Shown: piece by piece, positions 2,858 to 36,176 of the stretch
How the letters are laid out: every line of letters begins with the position of its first letter
How positions within the stretch are numbered: position 1 is the stretch's first letter
IMG/VR virus record: IMGVR_UViG_3300008110_000094
Location: 1 to 62,620 of that record
Length of the DNA: 62,620 nucleotides
Source: a virus
Taxonomy: Duplodnaviria > Caudoviricetes
Strand: one strand, 5' to 3'
Translations under genes and position numbers: made by a program
The notes under the pieces: generated by a model
Databases searched by the model: none
What the model saw: only the letters and a program-made list of their open reading frames with translations
Told to the model about the DNA's origin: nothing

Positions 2858-3157
2858 ATGCCGCTCTACATCACCGAGTACCAAAGCCTCGCGAGGGCCA
2901 ACAACGGCCCGTTTGTCTCGGCAGGCCAAGAGCCCAACGTGGCCGAGCAGCAGGTGGCGATCAGCGGCTCGTCCACGCAGTCCGCAGCGTTCAACGCCAA
3001 GACGGGCTTCGTGATGATCCACACCGACGCGATCTGCGCCCTGGCGTTTGGCGACAACCCAACTGCCGCCAACAACCGGCACCGCATGGCCGCAGGCGAG
3101 GTCCGGTTCTACGGCGTTTCGCCCGGCCAAAAAGTCGCCGTCATCACGGCGACGTAA
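2858..3157 (+). CDS. Small putative virion protein (99 aa, beta-rich)
   Basis: GGGGAG RBS, typical codon usage. Confidence 0.75.
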   Translation: MPLYITEYQSLARANNGPFVSAGQEPNVAEQQVAISGSSTQSAAFNAKTGFVMIHTDAICALAFGDNPTAANNRHRMAAGEVRFYGVSPGQKVAVITAT

Positions 3158-3171
3158 GAGAGGATCGAGCA

Positions 3172-3468
3172 ATGATTCGAGCCGGATCAGGCGGGGCCGC
3201 TCCTGCCGAAATCGGGCGCGTCACCATCGATGCCGGCGCCCGCCCTTCGGCGTTCGACATCGCGCAAGAGATCGTCGCCACGTCCGCAGACGGCGGCGTG
3301 ACCATCGGACAAGCGCTCAAACTCTTGTTGGCCGTCATGGTCGGCAAAGTCTCGGGCGCTGGCACGTCAACGATCACCTTCCGCGATGTCAACGACACCA
3401 AGGATCGCGTCGTGGCCGATGTGGACACGAACGGCAACCGAACCAACGTGACCAAAGATGTTTCCTAA
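3172..3468 (+). CDS. Hypothetical virion-associated protein
   Basis: RBS and codon usage; beta-rich C-terminus TITFRD...RVVADVDTNGNRT. Confidence 0.7.
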   Translation: MIRAGSGGAAPAEIGRVTIDAGARPSAFDIAQEIVATSADGGVTIGQALKLLLAVMVGKVSGAGTSTITFRDVNDTKDRVVADVDTNGNRTNVTKDVS

Positions 3469-20749: not shown

Positions 20750-22150
20750 ATGGCAAGCGGACTGCAATTCATCACCTTCAATCCCGCGTCGGCCGCCTAC
20801 AACGAGGGGCAGGACCGCACCGAACGCCGCCGCGCGCAGGATCTGCAGATGCGCCGGGGCGAGTTCGATCTGTCGGAAGCCCAGCGCCAATCCGCCGAAA
20901 ACCAGGGCGTCGATGCGGCGATCCGCGAAGGTCTGACGCCGCCCGCCGCACCCCGTCCGCAAGCCCCAGCACCGGGCCCGGTCGATCAGGTCCGGGGCCA
21001 GGGGGAAGGCCGGATCGAAAGCGCACCCCTGCCGCCGACGCAAGGCCAGCCCGCCGCAGCCCCGCAGGCCGCCGCCGCGCCCCAACAGCGTGTAGGGACT
21101 CAGGTCGCCAACCGCCTTGCCCAGACGCCGGGCGGCGGGCGCGCAGCCCTCGCTTTGCGCCAGGGCGACGAGCGCCAGCGCGACGAGGCCGAAACCCGCG
21201 CTTTCCACTATTTGTCGAACCCCGCGACCGCCCATCTGGGGCTCGAGCTTGCCAACAAGATCGGCATGCCCGTTCCCCCGCAGTTGGCAAATAACACGGC
21301 GTTCTGGCAGGGCACGGCCATCGCCAAGCAGCTCTATCCCGACGATCCGGCGGCGGGCCAAAAGTTCGTGTCGGCCTTCGTCCAGGGCGGGGGCGGCGAC
21401 GTTCAAGCCTCGACACAAGCCGGTGTGCAGGCGGCCGGCGTGCCGCCCAAGCGTCGGCGCTACGGCACGGTGCAGGGCGACGACGGGATCGTGTTCTACG
21501 ACCTCGAAAACCCCCAGCACCAGATTGCGGGCCCGCAGCGCACGCAGGGCCAGTATGTGACCGGCAACGACGGCAATATGCTGTTTTTGCGGCAGGGCCG
21601 CACGCAGGCCGAACCCGTCACGGGCGTCGATGGTCAGCCGCTTGCCGCCCAGCGCTTTGGCGCCGCGCGCGGCGCGCAGGCGAGCGTGTTCCAGCAGAAG
21701 CAGCAGGCGTGGCTCGCCGCCAACCCGGGCGACGTGCAGGGTGCTTTGGCCTACGCCTCGGGCACCAAGCAAGTCGATCCGGCCACGGAACTGCGCATCG
21801 CCTCGGGCATTGCCAAGGTGGAATTGGGGAACGCGCCCGATCCGCTTCTTTCAACCCCGGCGCAGCGCGAAGCCTACCAGCGCTCCTTGCAGGCCCGCGC
21901 GCAAGAAATCGTCCAGGGCTGGCGCCAGCAGCAGCCGGGCGGGCAGGCGCCGCAACCCGGCGCCGCTCGACCGCCGCAGGCCGCACCGCAGCCCGGCGCA
22001 CCGCCGCCGATGGCGGCCCCGGCCATGCCCGCCGTGGGCGGCACGCGCGAAAGCCCCGCCATGCCGCAGACCGAGGACGAGTTCAACGCGCTCCCCTCGG
22101 GCTCCGTCTATGTCGATCCCGACGACGGCATCCTCTACGTCAAACCGTAA
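20750..22150 (+). CDS. DNA ejection protein (P22 gp20-like position)
   Basis: Q/A/P-rich; C-terminal 'E..ALPSG..Y.DPD.G....KP'. Confidence 0.7.
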   Translation: MASGLQFITFNPASAAYNEGQDRTERRRAQDLQMRRGEFDLSEAQRQSAENQGVDAAIREGLTPPAAPRPQAPAPGPVDQVRGQGEGRIESAPLPPTQGQPAAAPQAAAAPQQRVGTQVANRLAQTPGGGRAALALRQGDERQRDEAETRAFHYLSNPATAHLGLELANKIGMPVPPQLANNTAFWQGTAIAKQLYPDDPAAGQKFVSAFVQGGGGDVQASTQAGVQAAGVPPKRRRYGTVQGDDGIVFYDLENPQHQIAGPQRTQGQYVTGNDGNMLFLRQGRTQAEPVTGVDGQPLAAQRFGAARGAQASVFQQKQQAWLAANPGDVQGALAYASGTKQVDPATELRIASGIAKVELGNAPDPLLSTPAQREAYQRSLQARAQEIVQGWRQQQPGGQAPQPGAARPPQAAPQPGAPPPMAAPAMPAVGGTRESPAMPQTEDEFNALPSGSVYVDPDDGILYVKP

Positions 22151-22162
22151 GGCTCAGACCGT

Positions 22163-25100
22163 ATGGCTCGTTTCCAAGGTATCCCTCTCGACCAAGCCCC
22201 GATCGAGCAGGCCCCGTCGATGGCCGCCCCGCGCGCACCGCGATTCCGGGGGACGCCCCTTGAAGGGCCCAAGCCTGTCGCCGCTCCCGCGCCCGTGGCA
22301 GCACTTGCCCCGCCGCCGATCGCCGAGGCGCCCGCACCCTCCGAAATGCCCGACATCAACCCGCCCACCATGCCGCAGGCTGCACCCCAGCCCGCAGCGG
22401 GCGGCCTTGGCGCGCAGATTATGCGGTTCGGCAAGGATGCCGGCGCCTCTGTCGTGGCTGGCACGGGATCCATCATGCAGTTCCCCGGTCAGGTCTATGG
22501 GCTGGCAACCGGCGATTTCGATACGATGTCCACCCGGGGCGGCGAGGCCGTTCGGCAATTCGGCCAATCCCTCAAATCGCCCGAGCTGCAAGAGAAGGAA
22601 CGCCAAGCCCAGGCCGTCATTGCCGAGGCCGAGAAAGACGGCTTCGGGGCCGAGGTCGGCGCGGTCCTCAAAACCTACCTCAGCGATCCGGTCCTGCTTG
22701 CCAATTTCACGGTCGAACAATTGCCGTCGCTTCTGGCGACGATGGGCTTCGGCAAACTCGCGCAATGGGGCACCCAGGTTGCGGCCAAGGTCGCGCAGCG
22801 CGGTGCTGTATCGGCGGCCACACTGTCCCGCGCCGGGCAGGCCGGGGCCATCACGGGCGGTGCCGCGATGCAGGGCGCATCCGTGGGCGACGAAACCCGC
22901 GATGCAATTCTGCGGCTTCCCGACGCCACTTTTGCGGCCTCGCCCGCGTTCCAGGCCCTTGTCGCGTCCGGTATCGACCCGCAGGCGGCCAAGGAACAGC
23001 TTGCGCTCGAGGGTGCTCGCCTTGCCGGTGCGGCAGGGGCCGGTATCTCCGGGGCCACGGCGACGTTATTGCCGGGCGTGGAGCGCATGGGGTTCGGCCA
23101 AGCGAGCACGCAAGGCATCATCCGGCGCGTCCTGACGGGCGGTGCGGCCGAAGGCTTCCAAGAAGGTCTGGAAGAAGGCGGCGGCCGGTTTGCCCAGAAC
23201 GTCGCTGTCCAACAGATCGATCCCGACCAATCGCTCTTGCAGGGTGTGGGTGCACAGGGCACCATGGGCGCCTTGCCGGGTGCCGTCACGGGCGCTGGCG
23301 TCGCGGCCCTTTCCGGCCGTGAGGATGCGCCTATTACCCCCTCAATCGCGGTCAATGGCGGCCCGCCGGTGCGGGTTGAGCCCACGTTCGACGCTCCCAC
23401 CCAGCCCCCGCCCCCGCCCAACCCGCGCGCAGGTGCCCGCTTCGGGACCGGCGATACCGTCCTGCAGCCCGCCCCCCTCTCGACGCCGCGCTCGCGCAGC
23501 GACCTTGCCGCCGACTTGGCCGACCCGCGCCCGATCGCGGAAATCGACGCCGAGCGCCAGCAGCGGGCCCGTGAGCAGCAAGTTCAACTCGCCAGCCAGT
23601 ACGGCTATCCCGCGATCGGGAGTGCCTTCACGTTCACCTTGCCCGATGGCGAAACCGTCCAGGGCGTCATGGAAGGCGTGCAGCAGACCAGCACCGAAGG
23701 GCTGGCGCGCATCCGGGGCGCCGATGGTCAGATGTACGTCCTCGGGGCCGACGAGTTTACAGTCACCGAAGGAACCGGCGACAAAGCGGACCCCGTGGTT
23801 GTCAAAACCGCCGAGGACGTTGACATCGCGGCCCAGCAGGTTGAGGCCCCGACCCCTGCCCAGGCCAAGGCCGGAAACTACAAGCACGCCCATCTTGAAT
23901 GGGAAGGCTTCGACATCGCCATCGAAACCCCGCAGGGCGGAACGCGCAGCGGCGTGGGCAAGGACGGCAAGCCGTGGTCCGTCACCATGCCCCACCATTA
24001 CGGACGCCTCAAAGGCACGATCGGCGCAGACGGGGATCAGCTCGACATCACGATCGGCCCCAACCCCGAGCAAAACGGCGTTGTGTGGGTGATCGACCAG
24101 ATCGACCCCGATACCGGCAAGTTCGACGAACACAAAATCATGGCCGGGTTCGAGATGGGCGAGGAAGCCGAGCAGGCCTACATCGACGGCTTCTCGGACG
24201 GGCGCGGCATCGACCGGATCGGCGCCGTGGAGCGCATGGATCTTGCCCAATTGCGCCAGTGGATCGCCAACGGCAACACCAAGAAGGCGCTCGCCTACAA
24301 CGGCACGCCCAAGTATCGCGAGTACCGCATCCCGGCGCCAGCGCAGGCCCCCGGCGACAATTACCGTGGCGGCCAGCGCGGGCCCGCCTTCGACCTTCCG
24401 GCCTCGCAGCCGGCGCCTGCGGCTGAGCCTCCGCAAGCGCCCGCCGAGGGTGCGCCGTCCCGTGAAAACGGGGCGGCTGCGTCCCCCGAGCCTGCCCCGG
24501 CGCCCGTCGTGCGCCCCGTGCAGCCGAAACCGCAAACCCTCGCAGAGCCGGAACAGGCCCCCGATTGGTACAAGGAACTGACGGAGACGGGCCGCCGCTT
24601 GCTTTATGTGCGCGCTGGGTTCACGGCAGGCGAGGTCAATCGCCGCGCCAAAGTGACGTGGAACAATATCAGCCCCGAGGTTCGCAAACGGCTGGAAACG
24701 GCAGCCAAAGCGCCGCAGCCGGAAGCCGCACCCCGACCGGCCTACATAGGGAAGGGGCCGGATTTCGCCAGCGGGCGCAATGATGCCCTCGCTGGCAAGC
24801 CGCGCGTCATGCCCACCTACTTCACTAAGCCCTACGGGAAAAACGCAAGGAACTGGTTGCTTGGATGGGATGCCGGTAAGGCCGAGGCCGATCAAACTAA
24901 GGCGTCGGAGGCGCCCCCCGCCGCCCCTCAGAAGGCGCCGCGCCCGAACGACATCTTCTTCAACAACAAGCAAGAACTGGTCGAATACCTGACCGACCGC
25001 TTGCCGAAGGGGTACGAGGTTGACCGTGGCGGTGATGGCCCTGGAAGCCCCGTTCGGCTGTTCGGTCCCGGCGACAAGCTGATCGACGAGTGGGTTGGCA

Positions 25101-28100
25101 GACCCGAACGCGCGCGGATCGACAAGGTGATCGAGCGTGCCAAGAAGGCCGCCGCCGACGCGGCCAAGCCCGCCCCCTCGCCAAAACCCGCCGAACCCGA
25201 TATGCTCCCGGCACAAGCGGAGAATGAAGATGTCGTTCAGCCGAGCGCAGTACCTTCAAGCCCTGCAGGATCAGAACCCGGAGCAAGCGCGGGAACTGCG
25301 CCGCAGCGGGCAGATGTCGAAGCACCTCGCGGACAAGGCGAAGGAGTACGAGGCGACGGAGCGCGCGGCGATGGCGAACGCCGACCCGAGCGACGAGAAC
25401 CTCGCACGGATGATCCGCGAGCAGGTGCAAGCGGAGACGTTCGACCTGCCGATGCAGCGGTAGCCGACAAGCGCCCTGACGCGGAGGTCAAGGGCGAGAA
25501 CCACGTCATTGAAGCCGGTGCGCTGGGCGAAAGCCGCCCGTGGCGCCAGAAGGCACTCGACAATATCCGCGCCATCGAATTGATGCGCCAGATCGAGGCA
25601 GAAGGCCGCCCGGCGACCAAAGCCGAGCAGGCCGAGCTTGCGCTCTATGTCGGCTGGGGCGGTATTCGCAACGCCTTCCCCGATGCCCAAGGGGCTTACG
25701 GCAAGGGCTTCGAGACGATCGGCAAGAAGCTGCGCGAGCTGCTTTCGGACACCGAATACAAGACGGCTCAGCGCTCGATCCAGTACGCGCACTACACCAG
25801 CGAAACGATCGTCCGCGAAATGTGGCGCGCGGCCCAGCAGCTTGGGTTCAAGGGCGGCAAGGTGTTCGAGCCCGGCATGGGGGTGGGCAATTTCGCGGGC
25901 ATGATGCCGACCGACGTTTCGGCGGCCAGCACCTATCACGGGCTCGAGCTTGACCACACGACGGCCCGCATCGCGCGCTTGCTCTATCCGCGCTTCGGCA
26001 TCCGGCAGGACGATTTCACGAAGGCCCCGATCCCCGCCGACACCTACGATCTGGCGATCGGCAACCCGCCCTTTGCCGACGTGGCGATCAAGTCCGATCC
26101 CGCCTACGCCAAGCATGCGTTCCTCCTGCATGACTATTTCTTCGCCAAGTCTCTCGACGCGGTGCGCCCCGGTGGGCTCCTGATGTTCGTCACGTCGGCG
26201 GGCACCCTCAACAAGATCGACACCGCCGCGCGCGAATACATGGCCGACCGGGCGGATTTCGTCGGCGCCATTCGCCTTCCTGGCGATGCCTTCGAGAAGA
26301 ACGCCGGAACCAGCGTCACGACCGACATCATCATTCTGCGCAAGCGGCTCCCCGGCGAGACAGCCGGCAGCAAGGCTTGGACCGAAACCGTCGAACGCAC
26401 CCTGCCCAACAAGGACGGGGCCAAGCAGTCCGGTGCGGTCAATCGCTGGATCTCCGAAAACCCGGAAATGGTGCTCGGCGACGAAGGCTTTTTCGACAAG
26501 CTCTATCCGGGCCGGTACGGCGTGCGATCGAGCGAAGGCGACTTTGCGCCCAAGCTCAAGAAGGCCGTCGATGCGCTCCCCGCCGACGTGATGACGCCGT
26601 GGCAGGAAACCCAGGCCGAACGCGCCGAGGTCGATTTCGGGACCAAAGAGCGCAAGGACGGCTCGTTCTATCTCGACGCCAGCGGTCGCTTGATGCAGAT
26701 GCGCGACCGCGTAGGCCAACCCGTTCCGCAGCGCGGGAAGGGTGCCACGGGCGGCAAGACGGGCGCGGAAATGGCCCGCATCAAGAAGCTGGTCCCGATC
26801 CGCGATGCGCTTCGCGCCGTTCTGGACGCGGACCTGTCCGAAGATTCCGCCAATGCGGCCAAGGCCCGCAAGCGGCTCAATGCCGCCTACGACGAGTTTG
26901 TTGCGGAGTTCGGCCCCATCAACAAGGCCGAACTGTCCGAGCGCCGCCCCAGCGTCGTGCAGCAGGAAAGTGCGCGCTCGGACGCGCGCGAAGAAGCCCG
27001 GTTCAACGGTCTGCCGTTCGACGAAGGGACGTTCGATCCGCGCCAGATGATAGTGCAAGGCAAGTCGCTGGCCGAAATTGCGCGTGCCCGGAACGCGATG
27101 CGCGAGGAATACGCCAAGGCCGGAAAGACGTTCGACGAGGGCACGTTCGATCCCGACGACATGCCCGACATCATCATCGACAAGCGCCCCAACGTCGATG
27201 CGTTCATGGACGACCCAGAGTCCTATCGCTTGCGCGCGATCGAGGACTACAACGACAACACCGGAGAGGCCAAGAAGCGGCCGATCTTCGAGCGCAACAT
27301 CATCACGCGCGAAAAAGAGCCCGAAATCAAATCGGTCAACGACGCCTTGCTCTACGTCCTCAATCGGCGTGGGCGCGTGGCGATCGACGAAATCGCGGCA
27401 GCGGTCAACATCACCGTCCCGCAGGCCATCGAACAGCTTGGCGACCGCATCTTCAAACTGCCCGGCACCCAGGACGCCTACGAAACGCGCGACGCCTATC
27501 TGTCGGGCAACGTCCGCAAGAAGCTGCTTGAGGCCCAGGCGGCGGCCGAGCGCAATCCCGAGTTCAAGCCGAACGTCGAAGCGCTCGAGGCTGTCCAGCC
27601 GACACCGCTTACCCCGTCTGAAATCTCGGCCAATCTCGGCATGCCGTGGTTGCCGACTGACGTGATCGAATCCTTCGGCACGGAAATCGGTCTGACCAAA
27701 CTGAAAGTCGGCTATCTGCCCGCCTTGGCGTCGTGGAACGTCTCGGGCGACGATAGCTCGTCGGCCGCGCGCACCGAATGGGGCACCGCCGAACGCTCGG
27801 CGCCGGAACTGATTTCCGACGCGCTCAATCGGCAAGATCCGAAAATCTACGACGAGGTTCGCCAGCCTGACGGCACGAAAACCCGCGTTCTGAACACCGT
27901 CGCGACCCAGGCCGCCCAAGACAAACTGCAAGCCATCAAGGCCAAGTTCTCGGAATGGGTCTGGTCGGATGCCGCCCGTGCGGATCGTCTGGCGACCCTC
28001 TACAATGACAACTACAACAACCTCGTTGTGCGCCAGTACGACGGCGACTATCTCACCACCCCCGGCATTGCGGCCGGCTGGTCCTGGCGCCCGCACCAGA

Positions 28101-31100
28101 AGCGCGCGATTGCCCGCATCATCCAATCCGGCAACACCTACCTCGCGCACGCGGTCGGGGCGGGCAAAACGTCCGAAATGATCGGCGCCATCATGGAACA
28201 GCGCCGGTTGGGGCTCGTGCGCAAGGCCATGGTCGCGGTCCCGAACCACATGCTCGGCCAGTTCACCAAGGAGTTCTACGAGCAGTATCCCACGGCAAAA
28301 ATCGCGGTTGCCGACGAGCGACAATTCCACACCGACCGCCGCAAGCAGTTCGTGGCAAACGTGGCGAATGACGATCTGGACGCGATCGTCATCACGCACT
28401 CGGCCATGGGGCTTATCCCCGTATCCCCGGAGTTCCAAGACGCGCTGATCCAAGAGCAGATCGACAATTTCCGCGACCTTCTCTCGGAGTTGGACAAAAC
28501 CGACCGCATCACGCGCCGCCGCATCGAGAACGCTATCGAACGGCTCGAGCAGCGCTTGTTGGGCAAGGCCAAGAAGCAGGATCAGGTTTACACGTTCGAG
28601 CAAATGGGCGTCGATCAGCTATTCGTGGACGAGGCCCACCTGTTCCGCAAACTCGACTTTGCCACGAAGATGTCGGGCGTGAAGGGAATCAGCCCCGAGG
28701 GGAGCAAGGCGGCCTTCGATCTGTATGTGAAGGCCCGCTACCTCGAAACCATCAATCCCGGTCGAAGCCTCGTCTTGGCATCGGGTACGCCGGTCACGAA
28801 CACGATGGCCGAGCTTTACACCGTCAGCCGGTACATGCAGCCGCAGGAACTTGCGGAGCGCGGCTTGGCGCATTTCGACGCCTGGGCGGCGGCGTTCGGA
28901 GACATGGCGACGGAGTTGGAGCAGGACGCAGCCGGGGGCTACAAGCCGGTCACGCGCTTTGCGCAGTTCGTCAACATCCCCGAACTGTCGGCCATGGTGC
29001 GGCAGCAGATGGACGTGGTTACGTCCAACCAGCTCGAGCAATACGTCGTGCGCCCGAAGATCAAGGGCGGCCGGCGCGAGCTGCATATGTCCGAAAAGTC
29101 GCCGGAATTGGCCGACTATCAGGAACAGCTTGCCGGTCGCATGAAGGCGATCGCCAACCGGAAAGGGCCGCCGAAGCCGGGCGACGACATCATTCTGTCC
29201 GTCATCAACGACGGGCGCCATGCCGCCATCGACATGCGCTTGGTCAATCCCGACCTTCCGGCCGATCCCACGTCGAAGCTCAGCCGCATGATCGACCGGG
29301 TGTTCGACATCTGGCAGAAAACCAAGCGCCAGCCGTTTCACAAGGCCGAAGGCGGCAAGTACACCGAGAAGCCCGTCGATTACGGCCCGGCCACGCAGAT
29401 GATTTTTTCCAATCTCGGCATCGGCGGATCGCGGCCCTTCAACGTGCACACCTACATCGTCAACGAACTGGCCCGGCGCGGCGTGCCGCGCGCCGAGATT
29501 GCGCAGATCGCGGATTTCAAAACCCACGTCGCCAAGCAACGCCTGTTCAACGACATGAACGAAGGCAAGGTGCGCGTGCTGATCGGCTCGACGGCCAAGA
29601 TGGCAACCGGCGTCAACGCCCAGCGCCGCCTCTACGCGCTGCACAACCTCGACCCCCTCTGGTATCCGGCCGACGACGAGCAGCGCAACGGTCGCGCCTT
29701 GCGTCAGGGCAACATGAACCCGGAAATCGAAATCAACGACTACTCGACCAAGGGCACCTACGACTCAACCATGTGGGGCATGATGGCCCGCAAAGCCGGG
29801 TTCATTCAGGGCTTCTTCGAGGGCGACAAGTCGATCCGGTCGATCGAGGATTTGGGCGAGGCGAGCTTGTACGAGCAGGCGAAGGCGCTCACCACGAACG
29901 ATCCCCGCCTGATCCAGTTGACGGAAACCAAGCAGGAATTGGAGAAGGCGCGGCGCCGCCGTTCCGCGTTCGAGTCCGAGGTCTGGTCGGTCAAAGAGAA
30001 GATCGCGGGCGCCAACCGCTCGATTGCCTACGCCAAGCGCCGTATCCCCGATGTCGAAAAGGACATCGCCCAGCGGATCGAAACCAAGGGCGATGCGTTC
30101 AAGGGAGCCGTCAACAGCAAGAAATTCGACGAGCGCCCCGAGTTCGGCAACGCCTTGCTCGCCCAGATGAACGACATCGCGGAACTGGAAAGTCCGACCA
30201 AGGCCAAGAAAATTGCCGAGGTCGGCGGCTTCCCGGTCATGGCGTCATCGCAAAAGGCTTGGTATGCGAAGCCCGGCGACCCGTTGAAGGTGTCGGTCTA
30301 CCTCGACCGCAACGGCGATTTCCAGACCGACATTGCAGAGTCGGAATCTGCCCTTGGTCTGGTTCGCAGCATCGAATATGCGCTCGGAAAGTTCGAGTCC
30401 GAGCGGGACGGCTATCAGAACAACATCGCGGCGGCCGAGCGCACGATTAAGGACTACACGCCGAAGCTCGAAAAGAAATTCGACGGCGACGAAAAGATCA
30501 AGGAACTGGCGGAAAAGCTCGCCCGTCTCGAAGCCGACATCAATGCGGACGCCAAAGCGCGCGATGCGGCGGCGGCGGCACAGCAAGCGGCGACCAAGGC
30601 CGAGGATGAATCCGGCGAAGAAATGCAGTCGCTGCGCAACACGGGCCGGGCGCGCAACGGCGAGAAGGTCAAACTCGGGGCGCCCATCGTCGATCGCAGC
30701 CTTGATACCCTGCGGGCCGAACTCTACGCGGATCTTCGCGAAGAACTGGACCGGATCGGGCTCACCGACGTTGCCCTGAACCTTCCCGACTATATCGCGC
30801 GCGGGGACGGGGAAGGCGGGGTCCAGTATTCGGCCGGCCGCCAGCGGTTCTGGGGCGACGCGCAAGTGCTGATCGAGATTGCCTTGACCGAAGCGAACGG
30901 CGCCGAGGTTCAAGTCGATCCAAACTCGACTCTGCACCACGAAGCCGTCCATGCCATGAAGCGGCTCAACCTGTTCAGCCCGGCCGAGTGGAAGGTGCTG
31001 GCTGCGCGGTCGGAAGCCGTGTGGGTCAAGGAATACGGCCTGACCGACAAGGACTCCGGCTACAATAACCTGCCCAAAAACCTGATCCTCGAGGAAGGCA

Positions 31101-34100
31101 TCGCCCGAGCCTACGAGGCTTGGAAAGAGGGCCAAGAGGGGGCGATGAAGGGCGGCCTGATCGCGCGGGCCTTTGCCAAGATCAAGCGCTTCATCGAGGC
31201 GATCGGCAACGTGTTCCGGGGCCGGGGCTTCAACACGGTCGAAGGGCTGTTCGAGAAGATCGACGAGGGCAAGATCGGCCGCCGTGGGCGCGAGGCGCGG
31301 CACGCAGATCCCGATGGGCCGCGCAAGAATTTCAAGCCCATGTATGCCGATGTGCCGGGCGAACCGGCGCCGAAGACAATGGCCGAAAATCTCGCACGCG
31401 GACGGGCGGCGATTGCGAAGGTGCTGGCCGAGCAGACCGATGTGCGCCACGCCGCTTGGCGTCCCGAACTCGGCTGGATCGATTTCATCTGGGGCGACGA
31501 CGCCAAAGGCATCGCGCACGCCATCAAGGGGCGGATCGAAAAAGACGGCATGTCCCGTGCCGACGCCGAAACATTGGTGCGCCGCATCCCCGATGTCATC
31601 GCGCGCGGTCGTCTAAACCCATACTTCGTCACGCCAGAGCAGCGCGTTGGACGCACGATTGTCTGGAACAACCAGACGGTTGTGCTGCGATTTGAAATCG
31701 ATGGCGTTGATCGCCGCTGGGTCATCACTTCGCACGAAGGCATGAGCAAAATGCCGAGCGGCGCCAAACAGATTTCGGAACAGCGGGCGGAGGAATTGAT
31801 CGCCGATGCGACGGTGAGGGGTTCGGGCGCCTCGTCCGTTGCTACGCAGGGTGAGCTTCGCGCGAACCTACGTGACCAAGCCAAAGCGGCTGCCAGTGGC
31901 GACACTGGACCCGGTATTTCGACCGGGCTAGGTACGGCTAGCGGTTCCCGCCGAAGCGGCATCTCGCCCACCCAGGGAGCGGCGACGGGCAAAGATATAC
32001 CCGAAACCGACTCCGATGGCAACCCGGACGGCAGCAACGACGACGCCATGTACTCCCTTCTGCCGAAGGACCAAGCCTCGCCGGCAGAGTCCGAGCGCAT
32101 GGCGGAACTGGCCGGGGAAGAAATCGTCTCGGGCACCGAGCGCGATTTCGTCAACGACGCTGGGCTCGTCAAGCGCTGGGTTGTGCATCCCCGCACCATC
32201 GCGGCCTACGACAAGGATTTCGTGCCGGTCTATCGCGCCGCCGTTCGCCAGTTCGAGACGCGCGACGAGTTTGCGGCCGAAATCGCCCGCAAGGCCCAAG
32301 CCTATACGGACCTGACGCCCGAGGACCGCGCCCAGGTCGATAAGCTGCTTGAGCTTGGTCGCCTGGAAGGGACGGTCTATGGCGACGCCGCGCTGAAAGA
32401 CGGCGTGACCAACGATCCCAGCGCCAACGAGGGCCGCACCGAAAACGCCGTCCTCACCAAGCCCGGCGAAACCGTCACGCTCACCGACCGGCAGATCGAG
32501 GGCTACAAGGCTGCACGGGCTTCGATGAACACGGCCTTGGACCTGTTCAAAGCCCAGATCATCGAAGAATGGGGCTACGATCCGACCGAGATCCGCTCGA
32601 GCGCCGACATCCTCGCCCTCATCACCGACGAAACCGGCGACCGGGAAGCCGAGCAGCACAAGGATGCTGCGAAGATCGTGCGCGAAATCGAGCAGGCGCA
32701 GCGCACCGGCTACGTCCCGTTCACGCGCTGGGGCCAGATCGGCATTGCGGTTCGCAGGGCCGATAGCCGCCAGATGGCGCTCGGCATCGACGGCGAAGCC
32801 TCGCGCCCCTACACCACGATCCACTACGAAATGATCGAGGTCGATGGGGCCGTCTCGCGCCTCATGCGCGCCGCCCGGAAGCTGAAAGGCCGCAAGACGG
32901 CCGAACAGCTCGGGCAGTTCCCCGAGGTCAAGGCCCGGTTGGACGCGCTCAAGGCCAAGTACGAGGGCGACCCCGACGTGCGGTTCAGCGTGTTCCAAGT
33001 CGGGGAGGGTGGGCCGCTCGAGCAGGGCGTGAAGCTGTCCGATCTGGACATGCTGGCCGAGGTCGGGCGGATCGACGACAAGGCCTGGGAGCAGGTGCGC
33101 GAGCAGCTTGAAAAAGCGATCAAGATGCGCGGCTTCCGCAAGCATTTCTTTGGCTCGAAGAACCTGCCGGGCTACTCGGTCGATTTCGAGCGCGCGATCG
33201 CCGACTACACGATCGGCATTGCCGGGTATCTGGCCCGTCGAAAGTACGGCTCGATCTGGGATGGTGCAGTGGGCAAGATTCCGACCACCAAGCCCAAGCT
33301 TCGCGAATACGCCCAGAAATACCGGGACTACACGCAATCGCCCCAAGAAGAATTGCAGATGCTGCGGCAGTTGGGGTTCGTGTTCTACCTTACCTCACCC
33401 GCTTCTGCCTTGGTCAACACGACCCAGGTTCCGCTTGTGACGGTGCCCTGGCTATCGCAGTTCGCGCCTGGGCCCAAGGTGATGTACCACGTCACGAAGG
33501 CCTACAAGGACGCCTTCGCGATGACGACGGCAAGCCGTGGCATGGACGTGTTCGACCCCGCCAAAGCGCCGGAGGACGTTCGCGAAGCCTTCCAGAAAGC
33601 GTGGGACGAGGGCTTCTTTGTCCCGTTGAACACCTGGGAAATGATGGGCACCGCGCAGGCCCGCAGCCAAGTGGTTCGGCGTCTGTCGAAAGTCAGCCGC
33701 ACGGCGGTCGATGCCATCGCGCTTGGGTTCACCGTAGCCGAGCGCTTGAACCGGATTGTGACGTGGATGGCGGCCTATCGTTTGGGCAAGCAGGAAACCG
33801 TGCGGCAGTCGGCCCGCACCATCCTTGCGAAGAACGCACTCGCCCGGTCGGACGAGCTGTTGCGCGGCTACACCCCGGAAAAGTTCGCAGGCTTCGCGAT
33901 CGACGAAACCCAATTGCGCATGGGCAAGGTCAACCGTCCCGCGATGATGCGCGGCGCCGGGGCGGCGATCTTCCAGTTCAAGGGTTTCACCATGCAGATG
34001 ATCGAATTGCAGTTCCGCATGGTTCAACAATATGCAGGCCGCCGCCCGAAAGTCGCAGTCGGCGCCATGTGGTTGCTGTTGATGCTGACGGCTGGCATCT

Positions 34101-34933
34101 GGGGCGCCCCGTTCGGAGACGATCTGAAAAACATCTTGGAGTGGATGAAACGCAAGTTTGGCGGGACCGATCTCGACCTTGATACCGAACTGCGCGAGTT
34201 GGTCGTCGAATTGACCGGCTCGCCGGGGCTTGCAGAAGCGTTCTCGCGCGGTACGTCGCGCGCGGCCGGCGTCGATCTGCAGCGCATTGGCATGGGCAAC
34301 GTCCTACCGGATGATGCGCAAGAACTTGGCGGTATTCCGCTTGATCTAGCCTGGGGGCGTCTCTCGCAGGCAATCGAACACGGCAAGCGTGGCAACTGGA
34401 TGCTGGCTTTGAGCGAAATGATGCCCGCGTTCCTCAAGAATCCGATCGTCGCCATGTCGTGGGGCACGGAAGGCGTCAGATCCCAGACATCGGGGCGCGT
34501 TGTTATTCCGCCCGAGAAAGTCACGGCGGGCGATATCGCACAGAAGGCGATTGGCTTCACCCCGGCCGCCATCGCCAACCAACGGGAGTCCGAACGCGCC
34601 CAGACACGGGCGAACACCGCGACCAAAGAGGTCAAGGACCGCTACATCGGGGAACTGGCACGCCTTCGTGCGGACATCCTGCGTGCCGACACCGCCAACG
34701 ACGCGGCCAAGTCTCGGGTGCTCGAGGAACGGTTCGCGCGCACCCTCGACGAGATCCGCGCCTTCAACGAGGGCCGCCCGCTGCACGAAATGGTCATCGT
34801 CAATCCGAAAACCCTCAAGGATCGGATCAAGGAAGAACTGTCCGGGGCGGCGGTGCGCGACAAGAACGCCCCCAAACAGGCCCGCCCGCGCCGCGAGGAA
34901 ATCGAGCGAATCTACGGCGAGCAGCCCCGATAG
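22163..34933 (+). CDS. darB: Giant (4256 aa) DarB-like large polyvalent ejection protein: InPase-like, N6-adenine MTase, SNF2/SF2 helicase, HExxH metallopeptidase-like, PBECR-like nuclease and PLxRFG-like C-terminal regions
   Basis: AGNYK..H....I.IETP.G..RSG....W...M..HYG...GT.GADGD.LD; FEPGMGVGNF and NPPF (26063-26074); AVGAGKT (28151-28171), DEAH (28628-28639), QRNGRALRQGN; HEAVH (30938-30952); WIDFIWG....GIAH; YVPFTRWG. Confidence 0.93.
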   Translation: MARFQGIPLDQAPIEQAPSMAAPRAPRFRGTPLEGPKPVAAPAPVAALAPPPIAEAPAPSEMPDINPPTMPQAAPQPAAGGLGAQIMRFGKDAGASVVAGTGSIMQFPGQVYGLATGDFDTMSTRGGEAVRQFGQSLKSPELQEKERQAQAVIAEAEKDGFGAEVGAVLKTYLSDPVLLANFTVEQLPSLLATMGFGKLAQWGTQVAAKVAQRGAVSAATLSRAGQAGAITGGAAMQGASVGDETRDAILRLPDATFAASPAFQALVASGIDPQAAKEQLALEGARLAGAAGAGISGATATLLPGVERMGFGQASTQGIIRRVLTGGAAEGFQEGLEEGGGRFAQNVAVQQIDPDQSLLQGVGAQGTMGALPGAVTGAGVAALSGREDAPITPSIAVNGGPPVRVEPTFDAPTQPPPPPNPRAGARFGTGDTVLQPAPLSTPRSRSDLAADLADPRPIAEIDAERQQRAREQQVQLASQYGYPAIGSAFTFTLPDGETVQGVMEGVQQTSTEGLARIRGADGQMYVLGADEFTVTEGTGDKADPVVVKTAEDVDIAAQQVEAPTPAQAKAGNYKHAHLEWEGFDIAIETPQGGTRSGVGKDGKPWSVTMPHHYGRLKGTIGADGDQLDITIGPNPEQNGVVWVIDQIDPDTGKFDEHKIMAGFEMGEEAEQAYIDGFSDGRGIDRIGAVERMDLAQLRQWIANGNTKKALAYNGTPKYREYRIPAPAQAPGDNYRGGQRGPAFDLPASQPAPAAEPPQAPAEGAPSRENGAAASPEPAPAPVVRPVQPKPQTLAEPEQAPDWYKELTETGRRLLYVRAGFTAGEVNRRAKVTWNNISPEVRKRLETAAKAPQPEAAPRPAYIGKGPDFASGRNDALAGKPRVMPTYFTKPYGKNARNWLLGWDAGKAEADQTKASEAPPAAPQKAPRPNDIFFNNKQELVEYLTDRLPKGYEVDRGGDGPGSPVRLFGPGDKLIDEWVGRPERARIDKVIERAKKAAADAAKPAPSPKPAEPDMLPAQAENEDVVQPSAVPSSPAGSEPGASAGTAPQRADVEAPRGQGEGVRGDGARGDGERRPERREPRTDDPRAGASGDVRPADAAVADKRPDAEVKGENHVIEAGALGESRPWRQKALDNIRAIELMRQIEAEGRPATKAEQAELALYVGWGGIRNAFPDAQGAYGKGFETIGKKLRELLSDTEYKTAQRSIQYAHYTSETIVREMWRAAQQLGFKGGKVFEPGMGVGNFAGMMPTDVSAASTYHGLELDHTTARIARLLYPRFGIRQDDFTKAPIPADTYDLAIGNPPFADVAIKSDPAYAKHAFLLHDYFFAKSLDAVRPGGLLMFVTSAGTLNKIDTAAREYMADRADFVGAIRLPGDAFEKNAGTSVTTDIIILRKRLPGETAGSKAWTETVERTLPNKDGAKQSGAVNRWISENPEMVLGDEGFFDKLYPGRYGVRSSEGDFAPKLKKAVDALPADVMTPWQETQAERAEVDFGTKERKDGSFYLDASGRLMQMRDRVGQPVPQRGKGATGGKTGAEMARIKKLVPIRDALRAVLDADLSEDSANAAKARKRLNAAYDEFVAEFGPINKAELSERRPSVVQQESARSDAREEARFNGLPFDEGTFDPRQMIVQGKSLAEIARARNAMREEYAKAGKTFDEGTFDPDDMPDIIIDKRPNVDAFMDDPESYRLRAIEDYNDNTGEAKKRPIFERNIITREKEPEIKSVNDALLYVLNRRGRVAIDEIAAAVNITVPQAIEQLGDRIFKLPGTQDAYETRDAYLSGNVRKKLLEAQAAAERNPEFKPNVEALEAVQPTPLTPSEISANLGMPWLPTDVIESFGTEIGLTKLKVGYLPALASWNVSGDDSSSAARTEWGTAERSAPELISDALNRQDPKIYDEVRQPDGTKTRVLNTVATQAAQDKLQAIKAKFSEWVWSDAARADRLATLYNDNYNNLVVRQYDGDYLTTPGIAAGWSWRPHQKRAIARIIQSGNTYLAHAVGAGKTSEMIGAIMEQRRLGLVRKAMVAVPNHMLGQFTKEFYEQYPTAKIAVADERQFHTDRRKQFVANVANDDLDAIVITHSAMGLIPVSPEFQDALIQEQIDNFRDLLSELDKTDRITRRRIENAIERLEQRLLGKAKKQDQVYTFEQMGVDQLFVDEAHLFRKLDFATKMSGVKGISPEGSKAAFDLYVKARYLETINPGRSLVLASGTPVTNTMAELYTVSRYMQPQELAERGLAHFDAWAAAFGDMATELEQDAAGGYKPVTRFAQFVNIPELSAMVRQQMDVVTSNQLEQYVVRPKIKGGRRELHMSEKSPELADYQEQLAGRMKAIANRKGPPKPGDDIILSVINDGRHAAIDMRLVNPDLPADPTSKLSRMIDRVFDIWQKTKRQPFHKAEGGKYTEKPVDYGPATQMIFSNLGIGGSRPFNVHTYIVNELARRGVPRAEIAQIADFKTHVAKQRLFNDMNEGKVRVLIGSTAKMATGVNAQRRLYALHNLDPLWYPADDEQRNGRALRQGNMNPEIEINDYSTKGTYDSTMWGMMARKAGFIQGFFEGDKSIRSIEDLGEASLYEQAKALTTNDPRLIQLTETKQELEKARRRRSAFESEVWSVKEKIAGANRSIAYAKRRIPDVEKDIAQRIETKGDAFKGAVNSKKFDERPEFGNALLAQMNDIAELESPTKAKKIAEVGGFPVMASSQKAWYAKPGDPLKVSVYLDRNGDFQTDIAESESALGLVRSIEYALGKFESERDGYQNNIAAAERTIKDYTPKLEKKFDGDEKIKELAEKLARLEADINADAKARDAAAAAQQAATKAEDESGEEMQSLRNTGRARNGEKVKLGAPIVDRSLDTLRAELYADLREELDRIGLTDVALNLPDYIARGDGEGGVQYSAGRQRFWGDAQVLIEIALTEANGAEVQVDPNSTLHHEAVHAMKRLNLFSPAEWKVLAARSEAVWVKEYGLTDKDSGYNNLPKNLILEEGIARAYEAWKEGQEGAMKGGLIARAFAKIKRFIEAIGNVFRGRGFNTVEGLFEKIDEGKIGRRGREARHADPDGPRKNFKPMYADVPGEPAPKTMAENLARGRAAIAKVLAEQTDVRHAAWRPELGWIDFIWGDDAKGIAHAIKGRIEKDGMSRADAETLVRRIPDVIARGRLNPYFVTPEQRVGRTIVWNNQTVVLRFEIDGVDRRWVITSHEGMSKMPSGAKQISEQRAEELIADATVRGSGASSVATQGELRANLRDQAKAAASGDTGPGISTGLGTASGSRRSGISPTQGAATGKDIPETDSDGNPDGSNDDAMYSLLPKDQASPAESERMAELAGEEIVSGTERDFVNDAGLVKRWVVHPRTIAAYDKDFVPVYRAAVRQFETRDEFAAEIARKAQAYTDLTPEDRAQVDKLLELGRLEGTVYGDAALKDGVTNDPSANEGRTENAVLTKPGETVTLTDRQIEGYKAARASMNTALDLFKAQIIEEWGYDPTEIRSSADILALITDETGDREAEQHKDAAKIVREIEQAQRTGYVPFTRWGQIGIAVRRADSRQMALGIDGEASRPYTTIHYEMIEVDGAVSRLMRAARKLKGRKTAEQLGQFPEVKARLDALKAKYEGDPDVRFSVFQVGEGGPLEQGVKLSDLDMLAEVGRIDDKAWEQVREQLEKAIKMRGFRKHFFGSKNLPGYSVDFERAIADYTIGIAGYLARRKYGSIWDGAVGKIPTTKPKLREYAQKYRDYTQSPQEELQMLRQLGFVFYLTSPASALVNTTQVPLVTVPWLSQFAPGPKVMYHVTKAYKDAFAMTTASRGMDVFDPAKAPEDVREAFQKAWDEGFFVPLNTWEMMGTAQARSQVVRRLSKVSRTAVDAIALGFTVAERLNRIVTWMAAYRLGKQETVRQSARTILAKNALARSDELLRGYTPEKFAGFAIDETQLRMGKVNRPAMMRGAGAAIFQFKGFTMQMIELQFRMVQQYAGRRPKVAVGAMWLLLMLTAGIWGAPFGDDLKNILEWMKRKFGGTDLDLDTELRELVVELTGSPGLAEAFSRGTSRAAGVDLQRIGMGNVLPDDAQELGGIPLDLAWGRLSQAIEHGKRGNWMLALSEMMPAFLKNPIVAMSWGTEGVRSQTSGRVVIPPEKVTAGDIAQKAIGFTPAAIANQRESERAQTRANTATKEVKDRYIGELARLRADILRADTANDAAKSRVLEERFARTLDEIRAFNEGRPLHEMVIVNPKTLKDRIKEELSGAAVRDKNAPKQARPRREEIERIYGEQPR
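25178..25222 (+). promoter_or_regulatory. Putative internal promoter and RBS for the nested ORF
   Basis: TCGCCA(25178-83)-N17-TATGCT(25201-06); GGAG at 25219-22. Confidence 0.5.
25230..25463 (+). CDS. Overprinted 77-aa helical protein nested out of frame in the giant gene (TnpV-like)
   Basis: MSFSRAQYLQALQDQNPEQARELRRSGQMSKHLADKAKEYE...MIREQVQAETFDLP; own RBS and promoter; the main frame here is low-complexity R/G/P/D-rich. Confidence 0.68.
   Translation: MSFSRAQYLQALQDQNPEQARELRRSGQMSKHLADKAKEYEATERAAMANADPSDENLARMIREQVQAETFDLPMQR
31829..31990 (-). ncRNA. Putative antisense-encoded structured RNA inside the giant gene
   Basis: Closing stems GCC-CGTC/GACG-A-GGC and GGGTGGGC/GCTCACCC; hairpins CCGC-TTCG-GCGG, CCCGGT-CGAAAT-ACCGGG, CCAGTG-TCGC-CACTGG; upstream promoter. 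Confidence 0.55.
31994..32022 (-). promoter_or_regulatory. Putative antisense promoter
   Basis: TTGCCA(32022-17)-N17-TATATC(31999-94) on the - strand. Confidence 0.6.
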
Positions 34934-35010
34934 TGCGATCCAAACAGAGGAAGCCGAAATTCCGGCCGGTCGCCAATCGATCGGCGGTTTTCCGGTTCTG
35001 GCCCATCCAC

Positions 35011-35040
35011 AAACCCATCCCAAAAGGATGGGTTTTTTCT
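35011..35040 (+). terminator. Rho-independent terminator before the lysis genes
   Basis: AAACCCATCC-CAAAA-GGATGGGTTTTTT. Confidence 0.85.
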
Positions 35041-35117
35041 TGCCCGCTGACCGACGTGCGCGGACGGCCGACTCATCACGCGCGACACTCGATCCTCATC
35101 AAAAAGGACAAATCGAC

Positions 35118-35510
35118 ATGAGCGACTGGCCCTACCGCTATTTCTCTCGCGCTGAAATGGCGTGCAAGCACACTGGTAAGTGCGAAATGAAGAACGAGTT
35201 TATGGTGATGGCCGACGCGCTGCGCGAAGCCTTCGGCAAGTCGATGATCGTCACGTCCGGCTATCGCGACCCGTCGCACCCCGAAGAAGTGAGAAAGCGC
35301 GAGGACCGCGCTCGGCGTGGCCTCCCGCCGCCGCTTTCAACGCACTCGGAAGGCATCGCCATGGATGTTGCTGTGCGCGGTGCCGACGCCGTTCGGTTGC
35401 TCGAGCTTGCGCTGAGCATGGGCTTCCGGGGCATCGGCGTGCAGCAAAAGGGCGACACCCGATTCCTTCACCTGGATACCCGCAAAGAACCGGCAATTTG
35501 GAGTTACTGA
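35118..35510 (+). CDS. Endolysin, peptidase M15 family
   Basis: YF...E.AC, TSGYR...H, S.H..G.A.D, GIG....FLHLD.R. Confidence 0.9.
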   Translation: MSDWPYRYFSRAEMACKHTGKCEMKNEFMVMADALREAFGKSMIVTSGYRDPSHPEEVRKREDRARRGLPPPLSTHSEGIAMDVAVRGADAVRLLELALSMGFRGIGVQQKGDTRFLHLDTRKEPAIWSY

Positions 35511-35513
35511 ATC

Positions 35514-36176
35514 ATGCTTGGAGCAATCATCGGGGCCATCACCGGAATCCCGGCGCTGATCGACGCTGGCAAGGCCATCTTCCAGACAGTCAGCGGAAAG
35601 CCGTCCACGGCCACGTCGGCGCCCGAGCTGAATGACGAGGTCCAAGCCCTTCCTGCCGACCAACAGAAGGCATGGGCAGAAGCCATGCAGGCCAAGATCG
35701 ACTTCTACAAAGCCGAGAGCGCGCGTATCCAGAACGAGCAGGGCGACGTGACGGCCGAAATCCTCGCCGTGCTCGACAAGCCTGCGGCGGCCAAGGTCGC
35801 TATCGAGCGCATGACAACCCGGCCTTGGGTGGTCAAGCGCATGACGCATGTGATCCTTCTGCCGGTCTATGTGATGGTTCTCGACAGCCTGTTGATGGTG
35901 TTCAACGGGCTCTACCGCATGGCGACCGCCCAACGGGATCTGGCCCCCTTCGACCTTTTTGCGGAAAAGCTGTTCGGGGAAGGGTCGCTCTACGCCTCGA
36001 TGTATAACCTCGCCGCCCCCACGGCTGCGGTCGTGGTGGTGTCCTACATCACGGCCAAGACGGTTGAGACGGTGCGAAATGGTGCATCGGCTGGGGACGG
36101 GCTGGCCGGCACGATCGGGCGAGCTGTGCAGGCCGTGGGCGGTATTGTCGGGGCGGTCAAAGGTGCGCGCAAATGA
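35514..36176 (+). CDS. Holin-like membrane protein
   Basis: Follows the endolysin; RPW motif and two hydrophobic helices. Confidence 0.7.
   Translation: MLGAIIGAITGIPALIDAGKAIFQTVSGKPSTATSAPELNDEVQALPADQQKAWAEAMQAKIDFYKAESARIQNEQGDVTAEILAVLDKPAAAKVAIERMTTRPWVVKRMTHVILLPVYVMVLDSLLMVFNGLYRMATAQRDLAPFDLFAEKLFGEGSLYASMYNLAAPTAAVVVVSYITAKTVETVRNGASAGDGLAGTIGRAVQAVGGIVGAVKGARK

Follow-up and report, generated by a model that had tools for sequence, protein, structure and literature searches.

The DNA analysed here, called the window throughout, is the whole of the IMG/VR virus record IMGVR_UViG_3300008110_000094 (62,620 bp, with direct terminal repeats), and it is a complete Bcep22-type phage genome of 62.6 kb. 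Its largest gene, which takes up about a fifth of the genome, encodes a giant DarB-like polyvalent virion protein of 4256 amino acids. We consider it highly probable that this giant gene holds a further, real and separately initiated gene of 77 codons in the linker before its methylase domain, that the nested gene is conserved in every related giant gene examined, and that its helical product works with the giant protein. A preliminary description of the same DNA had drawn attention to a 77-amino-acid sense, out-of-frame open reading frame (ORF) directly before the methylase-helicase and to an antisense structured RNA directly after a nuclease-like domain, and had suggested that each might be a dedicated inhibitor or regulator of the enzymatic domain beside it. 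The nested ORF proved to be present, conserved and provided with a coding signal and a Shine-Dalgarno (SD) site of its own; neither the inhibitor role nor the antisense RNA held up, as described below. The features on which the argument rests are the following.

22163..34933, + strand: giant DarB-like polyvalent virion-protein gene (4256-amino-acid ORF; PHROG 10089; Pfam domains)
25219..25222, + strand: SD-like GGAG, 7 nt before the nested ATG (from the sequence)
25229..25462, + strand: dual-coded stretch, giant-frame residues about 1023-1100, a G/A/R/D/P/S-rich linker in which the giant frame is stop-free
25230..25463, + strand: nested gene of 77 amino acids plus stop (P0002), +1 frame, predicted four-helix protein (GC phase at third codon positions, hidden Markov model, wobble pattern)
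25466..26845, + strand: N6-adenine methylase block with NPPF motif, starting directly after the nested stop (Eco57I-like Pfam match)

Since high-GC DNA is full of alternative-frame ORFs, of which 76 of at least 60 amino acids overlap this 15-kb region, an ORF by itself means nothing, and it is the codon-position signal that sets the nested ORF apart. Over the whole giant gene the GC contents at codon positions 1, 2 and 3 (GC1/2/3) are 0.66/0.46/0.80. Over 25223-25462 the giant frame reads 0.88-0.93/0.67-0.70/0.40-0.42, and this high GC1 and low GC3 mean that it is the nested frame which here shows the normal coding pattern. Among the 71 alternative-frame ORFs of at least 70 codons found in the giant gene on either strand, the nested ORF is the sole one with such a GC3 phase switch. 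It lies as a whole inside the giant gene (25230-25463 within 22163-34933), on the same strand and in another frame, as its counterparts do at all 81 loci described next, and it ends a few bases before the conserved methylase block.

Relatives of the giant gene were collected through the methylase block, which gave 106 candidate stretches in the viral sample, 103 of them confirmed relatives, and the best 80 giant-gene loci were used. The 77-amino-acid protein of the window matched 13 of these 80 loci at E<=1e-3 (tblastn), always just upstream of the methylase and in the +1 frame. A hidden Markov model (HMM) of the nested family, built from 45 members, matched all 81 loci (the window and the 80), including 13 outside the model-building set, in every case on the + strand, upstream of the methylase, in frame +1 relative to it and inside an uninterrupted giant frame. 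These 13 viral loci had at first been scored as being without the nested gene, and the HMM located it further upstream in all of them. When the window sequence was excluded from the model, the leave-one-out HMM recovered the window ORF (E 1.6e-10) among the 842 six-frame ORFs of the window. A weak HMM match (13 bits) at ORF 35514-36176 was rejected as a low-complexity match to a membrane protein. Members of the family share the pattern A-M/L-x4-P-x2-F/Y-x2-L-x3-G-x-L and, near the C-terminus, AEE-x-V-x-A-x-L-I-E-F-P, the first residue being M or V in stop-to-stop translations. The nested frame, its start, its SD site and its wobble pattern are kept across methylase identities from 72% down to 37% and across GC contents from 45% to 69%.

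The nested gene was also present in all seven named phages that were checked (Bcep22, DC1, Gerry, Pavtok, Itty13, SopranoGao and Mwe-JY07), with SopranoGao and Mwe-JY07 carrying a subfamily that the HMM missed and that was found by inspection. It was unannotated in the seven GenBank regions inspected, where only the giant coding sequence (CDS) is given, and the GenBank phage records under the tblastn matches of two subfamilies likewise had only the giant CDS annotated (41/41 and 28/28). The window's own 77-amino-acid protein had no tblastn match in GenBank phages and no pattern-search match in viral contigs; it is a divergent member, so its relatives are reached only through the methylase. Another subfamily query (L037) had no match in GenBank phages either. 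Gene callers almost never report the family: a word-indexed search of 5.8 billion clusters returned 10 proteins, all unnamed, and the clusters of ten sampled family members held 1-3 members each with no informative name. A profile search of 1.84 billion representatives brought out 797 proteins with E<=1e-3, of which 210 had E<=1e-10; the majority are about 100 amino acids long. The expectation that such an ORF would escape gene callers and travel with the giant gene was thus borne out, over phages of a wide range; its product could not have come to light in virion or infection proteomes for which those annotations served as the search database. In the literature searched, which includes the available parts of PMC9144972 and PMC5512222, no gene lying within another of the DarB type is mentioned, a scope that leaves aside the founding Bcep22 paper and supplementary tables, which could list extra ORFs.

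The nested gene has translation start signals of its own. In the window GGAG lies 7 nt before the ATG, and in 60 homologues the start codons fall in the same alignment column, ATG in 55 and GTG in five. An SD core of at least 4 nt stands 4-12 nt upstream of the start in 53 of the 60, as against 5.4% of the other ATG/GTG codons in the giant genes, and a core of at least 5 nt in 36 of the 60, as against 0.7%; these counts are somewhat circular, the starts having been chosen partly by SD score before they were fixed to the conserved column. That ribosomes might re-initiate in the giant frame on reaching the nested stop was considered and rejected, there being no giant-frame ATG, GTG or TTG within about 15 nt of 25461.

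Both frames are held by selection, in different ways. In 14 disjoint pairs of loci the changes at nested positions 1, 2 and 3 numbered 189, 148 and 279, and those at position 3 exceeded those at position 2, which is the wobble position of the giant frame, in 13 of the 14 pairs (chi-square p 3e-10). When the two translations of one and the same DNA are compared, the nested frame has the higher protein identity (0.74 vs 0.63; 0.41 vs 0.31), the giant-frame reading of the overlap being G/A/R/D/P/S-rich and unconserved. The giant frame was nevertheless free of stops across the overlap in all 60 loci. Synonymous shuffles of the nested codons, with local codon usage, produced on average 0.5-6.3 giant-frame stops and left the giant frame open with probabilities of 0.000-0.585, at most 0.006 in all seven loci of up to 51% GC and in five others of 52-61% GC; set against this expectation, the absence of any stop in 60 of 60 loci means that the giant frame is actively kept open. 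In several relatives from genomes of 45-50% GC (L039, L027, L029, L031, L035 and L070) the nested GC3 is 0.59-0.71, well above genome GC, which fits avoidance of T at third positions, where it would begin giant-frame stop codons. These data show the stretch to be dual-coding, with amino-acid selection on the nested frame and the giant frame only kept open as a disordered, low-complexity linker.

The two frames also differ in their predicted structure. An AlphaFold2 model of the nested protein from a 45-sequence alignment had a predicted local distance difference test score of 90.4 and a predicted template modelling (pTM) score of 0.74, with four helices. The giant-frame translation of the same 45 DNA stretches gave a model with a pTM of 0.15, a coil with no secondary structure. 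Pfam family TnpV (PF14198) recurred below cut-off and in the same register with family members (5/10 with E 0.003-0.14, 3/10 with up to 25.3 bits, and 3/6), and it was the only match in two whole relatives' records, in a search in which TnpV also appeared at E<=1 in 7 of 14 control genomes. The cut-off of 27 bits was not reached, relatives scoring at most 25.3 bits and the window protein having no match at all. Atlas neighbours were hypothetical proteins of about 100 amino acids, one cluster being automatically named TnpV (0.87) and one having PF14198 in 11% of its members. TnpV of Tn4451-type transposons is alike in size (about 100 amino acids), and it was "postulated to be involved in excision" from its likeness to lambda Xis (PMC3158075, available part). 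Since the matches stay below threshold and occur in control genomes, we have not filed the nested family as TnpV.

Homologues in bacterial genomes bear on what the nested product might do. Among the best 80 of 326 confirmed methylase loci, one of them cut at the methylase, the HMM matched 14, all in frame +1 inside the main ORF and all with an ORF extending at least 810 nt upstream of the methylase. In terms of the 20 loci with a long N-terminal extension, 14 have the family by HMM and two more (L117 and L142) have divergent ORFs. No match in any frame was found, within the sequence examined, in the 59 loci in which the ORF starts at most 642 nt upstream of the methylase (most of them from Rhizobiales, several plasmid-borne). 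The nested ORF had been expected to occur together with the methylase-helicase, which is so for 81/81 viral giant genes and fails for the bacterial genes without a long N-terminal extension (0/59). Nor does the putative inhibitor accompany its module wherever that module is found, as in a toxin-antitoxin system, and the same 59 loci speak against the idea of a dedicated methylase-helicase inhibitor. Since the nested gene is tied to giants with fused virion modules and is absent from methylase-helicases that begin at the N-terminus, assembly, packaging or control is favoured over inhibition, and from the sequence comparisons a general inhibitor role seems less likely.

Some relatives of other arrangements were seen. 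The ORFs of L117 (about 2507-2944) and L142 (about 2276-2947) are different +1-frame ORFs of 146-224 codons with a coding phase signature; they end 27-30 nt into the methylase block, at the site of the nested family, and do not match the nested HMM. On one metagenome contig (L172:2372-3313) a free-standing relative of the 264-amino-acid type P0018 has the nested-family domain at its N-terminus and a further domain of about 180 amino acids, with no giant ORF over it and no methylase within 9 kb; P0018 had no match in viral contigs. The database protein P0035 (408 amino acids) has the nested-family domain twice, one at each end.

The giant gene is itself of the DarB-like kind, and the preliminary account of its extent (22163..34933, + strand) and domains was correct. 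The protein matches PHROG 10089, 'DarB-like antirestriction', at E=0 over residues 1049-2824, and an N6-adenine methylase is fused to a superfamily 2 (SF2) helicase in one very large multidomain protein (Eco57I-like, ResIII, SNF2 and Helicase_C matches). The order of domains is InPase (residues 566-701), N6-methylase with its NPPF motif (Eco57I-like at 1291-1364), SF2 helicase (1974-2516) and PBECR1 (3099-3193). An alignment of 44 methylase sequences has 46 invariant columns, and the NPPF motif is invariant. Apart from the methylase block, the domains lie as follows.

23858..24265, + strand: InPase domain (Pfam PF18823, E 2.8e-45)
28082..29710, + strand: SF2 helicase, from the ResIII/SNF2 N-lobe to Helicase_C (Pfam)
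31457..31741, + strand: PBECR1 nuclease-like domain (Pfam PF18809, 28.6 bits and 34.9 bits; cut-off 27.6 bits)

Searched by tblastn with the methylase block, 84 annotated records matched, all at <60% identity; they are giant genes from phages of the Bcep22 type, among them the Burkholderia phages Bcep22, BcepIL02, DC1, BcepMigl and JC1, many Ralstonia phages, Erwinia PEp14 and Pavtok, Klebsiella SopranoGao, Pseudomonas Itty13 and Microcystis Mwe-JY07. Mass spectrometry has placed gp69, its homologue in JC1, among the virion proteins (PMC9144972, available part). By analogy, the giant protein of the window would be carried in the virion and delivered with the DNA. In the Itty13 record (L170, MW460249.1 4352-8179) two long CDSs are annotated on the strand opposite the methylase-helicase homology; the + strand frame is open through the whole locus, and the giant gene of Itty13 seems to have been annotated on the wrong strand.

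It may be proposed that ribosomes initiate independently at the nested SD/ATG on the late mRNA of the giant gene, and that in some lineages an internal sigma-70-like promoter about 20-35 nt upstream probably also gives rise to a short transcript. The product would fold into four helices and act alongside the giant protein that is ejected. Most likely it would serve as an assembly, packaging or escort factor, or as a regulator required only where virion modules are fused in front of the methylase-helicase. A transcription start near 25213 (+) had been suggested for the window, where the following element was found.

25178..25206, + strand: weak sigma-70-like element, TCGCCA(25178-25183)-17-TATGCT(25201-25206), whose -10 ends 23 nt before the nested ATG (8/12)

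A promoter scan reported one site in 13 kb, where 2.0 were expected, and none at the site of the nested gene. The suggested promoter is weak in the window itself; stronger hexamers are present at this offset in some relatives. Sigma-70-like pairs of at least 9/12 were found in 12 of 60 segments upstream of nested starts, as against 15 of 1200 control segments, and in 13 of 14 promoter-like matches the -10 hexamer ends 19-35 nt before the nested start. Counted by lineage, a -10 hexamer of at least 5/6 was present in 7 of 35, as against 1.6% of control segments (p about 1e-6). An internal promoter in some lineages is plausible on these patterns.

Several points weigh against a real, separately initiated nested gene whose product works with the giant protein. 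The promoter-like element of the window, at 8/12, is weak and lies below the scan threshold, and the AT-rich hexamers before the SD sites could be translation enhancers instead of promoters. No Pfam or PHROG family was matched at threshold by the nested protein. A Foldseek search of the Protein Data Bank with the nested model gave nothing at E<=1e-3, and in a wide VIA search the best match (Z 6.3) was to an uncharacterised helical protein and within the background for helical models. The loci are related, so that raw counts overstate their independence, and for this reason disjoint pairs and 35 lineages were used where possible; the partial circularity of the SD counts is to be added here. Four of the 20 bacterial loci with a long extension show no nested ORF. 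A stop (after 378) interrupts the giant frame within the nested gene in L173:191-604, on a metagenome contig of 1.3 kb; no other case of this was seen, and either a sequencing error or a genuine split form could explain it. Metatranscriptome contigs, which came from three runs of a single freshwater study as 16 pieces, all on 24000-33000, leave 25230-25463 uncovered, although such contigs cannot show translation and absent cover is uninformative. One of these pieces, a 175-nt contig at 31802-31976, falls in the second linker, with a k-mer depth of 17 as against 2.2-5 for the other 15, in one run only.

Other explanations of the conserved +1 ORF can be weighed on the same evidence. A +1 frameshift just before the nested frame would yield the truncated N-terminal modules joined to the four-helix product alongside the full-length protein, like other frameshifts in phage structural genes. 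In some database proteins, P0063 (248 amino acids) and P0143 (347 amino acids), the domain does follow a longer N-terminal part in the same frame; P0143 has no M or V at the start of the domain, and two further phage giant genes with a weak +1 match downstream have the N-terminal part of P0063 in their giant frame. Such a shift is very unlikely, however, when the start column holds ATG or GTG in 60 of 60 loci, with an SD core before 53 of them, and when the +1 frame upstream of the start is non-coding in composition, variable in length and closed by a stop within 10 codons in 14 of the 60 loci (minimum 3), which leaves almost no room for a shift site. That the ORF is instead an untranslated relic of a compensating pair of frameshifts, or the shadow of constraints on the giant frame, the DNA or the RNA, we regard as extremely improbable. 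High-GC genomes are indeed rich in long alternative-frame ORFs, as the 76 overlapping this region attest, and the window protein is divergent, with 4-37% identity to other members. A relic would decay, though, and here frame, start, SD site and wobble pattern persist over the whole range of methylase identity and GC content given above; the giant-frame reading is unconserved and predicted to be coil, and the low-GC relatives raise their nested GC3 yet avoid every giant-frame stop.

The model of the preliminary description, in which the nested protein is the antidote of the methylase-helicase and an antisense RNA from the second linker (linker 2) controls the PBECR domain, is unlikely in our view. 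It would account for the nested gene always ending where the methylase block starts. It is further favoured by the deep contig at 31802-31976, which lies exactly on linker 2 in one of the three RNA runs and stops 11 nt short of the start predicted from a - strand TTGCCA-17-TATATC, and by a terminator-like hairpin on the - strand at 31562..31546. That promoter-like sequence was read by eye, is without the T at position 6 of the -10 and was unreported by the promoter scan, and the hairpin is one of 11 terminator-like sites found where 15.8 were expected. The contigs show neither strand nor ends, so the deep piece, seen in a single run of a single study, is a hint and not support. The antidote half of the model meets the 59 homologous genes that begin at the methylase and carry no member of the family. 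As for the RNA half, folding of 31780-32000 (-) gave a z of +0.30, with no excess structure, six sub-windows on both strands ranged from -1.08 to +1.01, Rfam had no match at E<=1 in 21000-36000, and the inverted repeats of linker 2 are only short ones of 9-12 nt. Neither viral nor metagenome contigs yielded a homologue of linker 2 or of its flanks, the four closest relatives that were searched have no PBECR1, and residues 3046-3646 have no relative in the five closest records. The antisense RNA claimed for this site is most likely not a feature at all.

31760..32090, no strand assigned: linker 2, claimed site of an antisense structured RNA (no feature supported; GC flat over the three codon positions)

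In linker 2 the main-frame GC3 drops to 0.62, and the flat GC over codon positions means that there is no hidden ORF there. The PBECR1 module and linker 2 (31457-32090) are, as far as the sequences compared go, private to this phage and look like a recently acquired module.

The arrangement has likenesses to systems already known. In lambda, the spanin gene Rz1 is embedded in Rz with its own ribosome-binding site, and both products are needed. The nested gene resembles Rz1 in being a complete small +1-frame gene that lies wholly inside a larger phage gene and has its own ribosome-binding site. Unlike the Rz1-in-Rz pair, the host gene here encodes a 4256-amino-acid polyvalent virion protein, and the overlapped part is a disordered linker with no functional domain. 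The nested product, again unlike Rz1, is without signal peptide or lipobox and is predicted to be a soluble helical protein of an uncharacterised family, and its partnership with the host protein is inferred here. Bcep22-type phages themselves have the 'embedded' Rz1-in-Rz class (PMC9144972, available part). The DarB system of P1, which according to the same source requires DdrA, DdrB and Hdf, offers another comparison. P1 DarB is likewise a virion-carried methylase-helicase antirestriction protein, whose function needs small phage proteins (DarA, Hdf, DdrA and DdrB among the accessory proteins); unlike the nested gene, those helpers are separate genes.

Overprinted genes of small viruses, of the phiX174 type, are alike in that two proteins are read from one DNA stretch in different frames, and in that one frame has the codon-usage signature and the other is low-complexity or disordered. 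The usual explanation for overlaps of the phiX174 type is the compression of very small genomes. Here, unlike that type, the genome is of 62.6 kb and the overlap is confined to one linker of a 12.8-kb gene. A codon-usage test for overprinted genes is reportedly the subject of a published study (PMC3744397).

A conserved second gene inside the largest gene of the genome, in no GenBank record examined, is of interest for several reasons. Bcep22-type phages, which are under study for therapy and biocontrol, have their hosts in Burkholderia, Ralstonia, Erwinia, Klebsiella, Pseudomonas and Microcystis. The overlap also provides a clear-cut case from nature of dual coding that has persisted for long in a genome that is not tiny, with a folded protein encoded in one frame and nothing but a linker kept open in the other. 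Through the nested gene the assembly, packaging or control of giant polyvalent proteins becomes accessible to testing. Hidden genes can be revealed by as simple a procedure as scanning the codon positions of very long genes.

The linkers of giant virion-delivered polyvalent proteins may be a recurrent home of overprinted genes, with at least two unrelated +1 families that have their own ribosome-binding sites and sometimes promoters. Such genes would encode obligate partners (escort, packaging or immunity), the giants having arisen by reading through small partner genes in a different frame. We put this forward tentatively and lean somewhat against it; if it were true, there would be a hidden layer of phage proteins unreported by any current annotation pipeline. 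Further nested candidates were seen in related giant genes. A second +1 nested family, unrelated to the first and of about 50-60 amino acids, occurs in one clade, whose giant genes carry it 1.9-3.1 kb upstream of the methylase. Its pattern is LPKTPSGE..EK.R.L...NPKMRRA.AAAIKAMGLP, its GC3 is 0.69-0.84, and the changes at its positions 1, 2 and 3 are 0.32, 0.21 and 0.46. This family ('NPKMRRA') is absent from the window and lies in the +1 frame at these positions in the relatives.

L068:1638-1853, +1 frame: second nested family
L077:2511-2717, +1 frame: second nested family
L073:1773-1955, +1 frame: second nested family
L050:1749-1940, +1 frame: second nested family
L071:1689-1880, +1 frame: second nested family
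L067:1680-1895, +1 frame: second nested family
L075:1602-1814, +1 frame: second nested family
L079:843-1055, +1 frame: second nested family

A third candidate, a +1 nested ORF (MLLELEVEMSPFEALKMVRRLVKVDRQQARLLKNLIK...) at L044:1902-2204 and L048:1593-1808, lies over a G/A/S-rich stretch of the giant frame and is 91% identical between these two close relatives.

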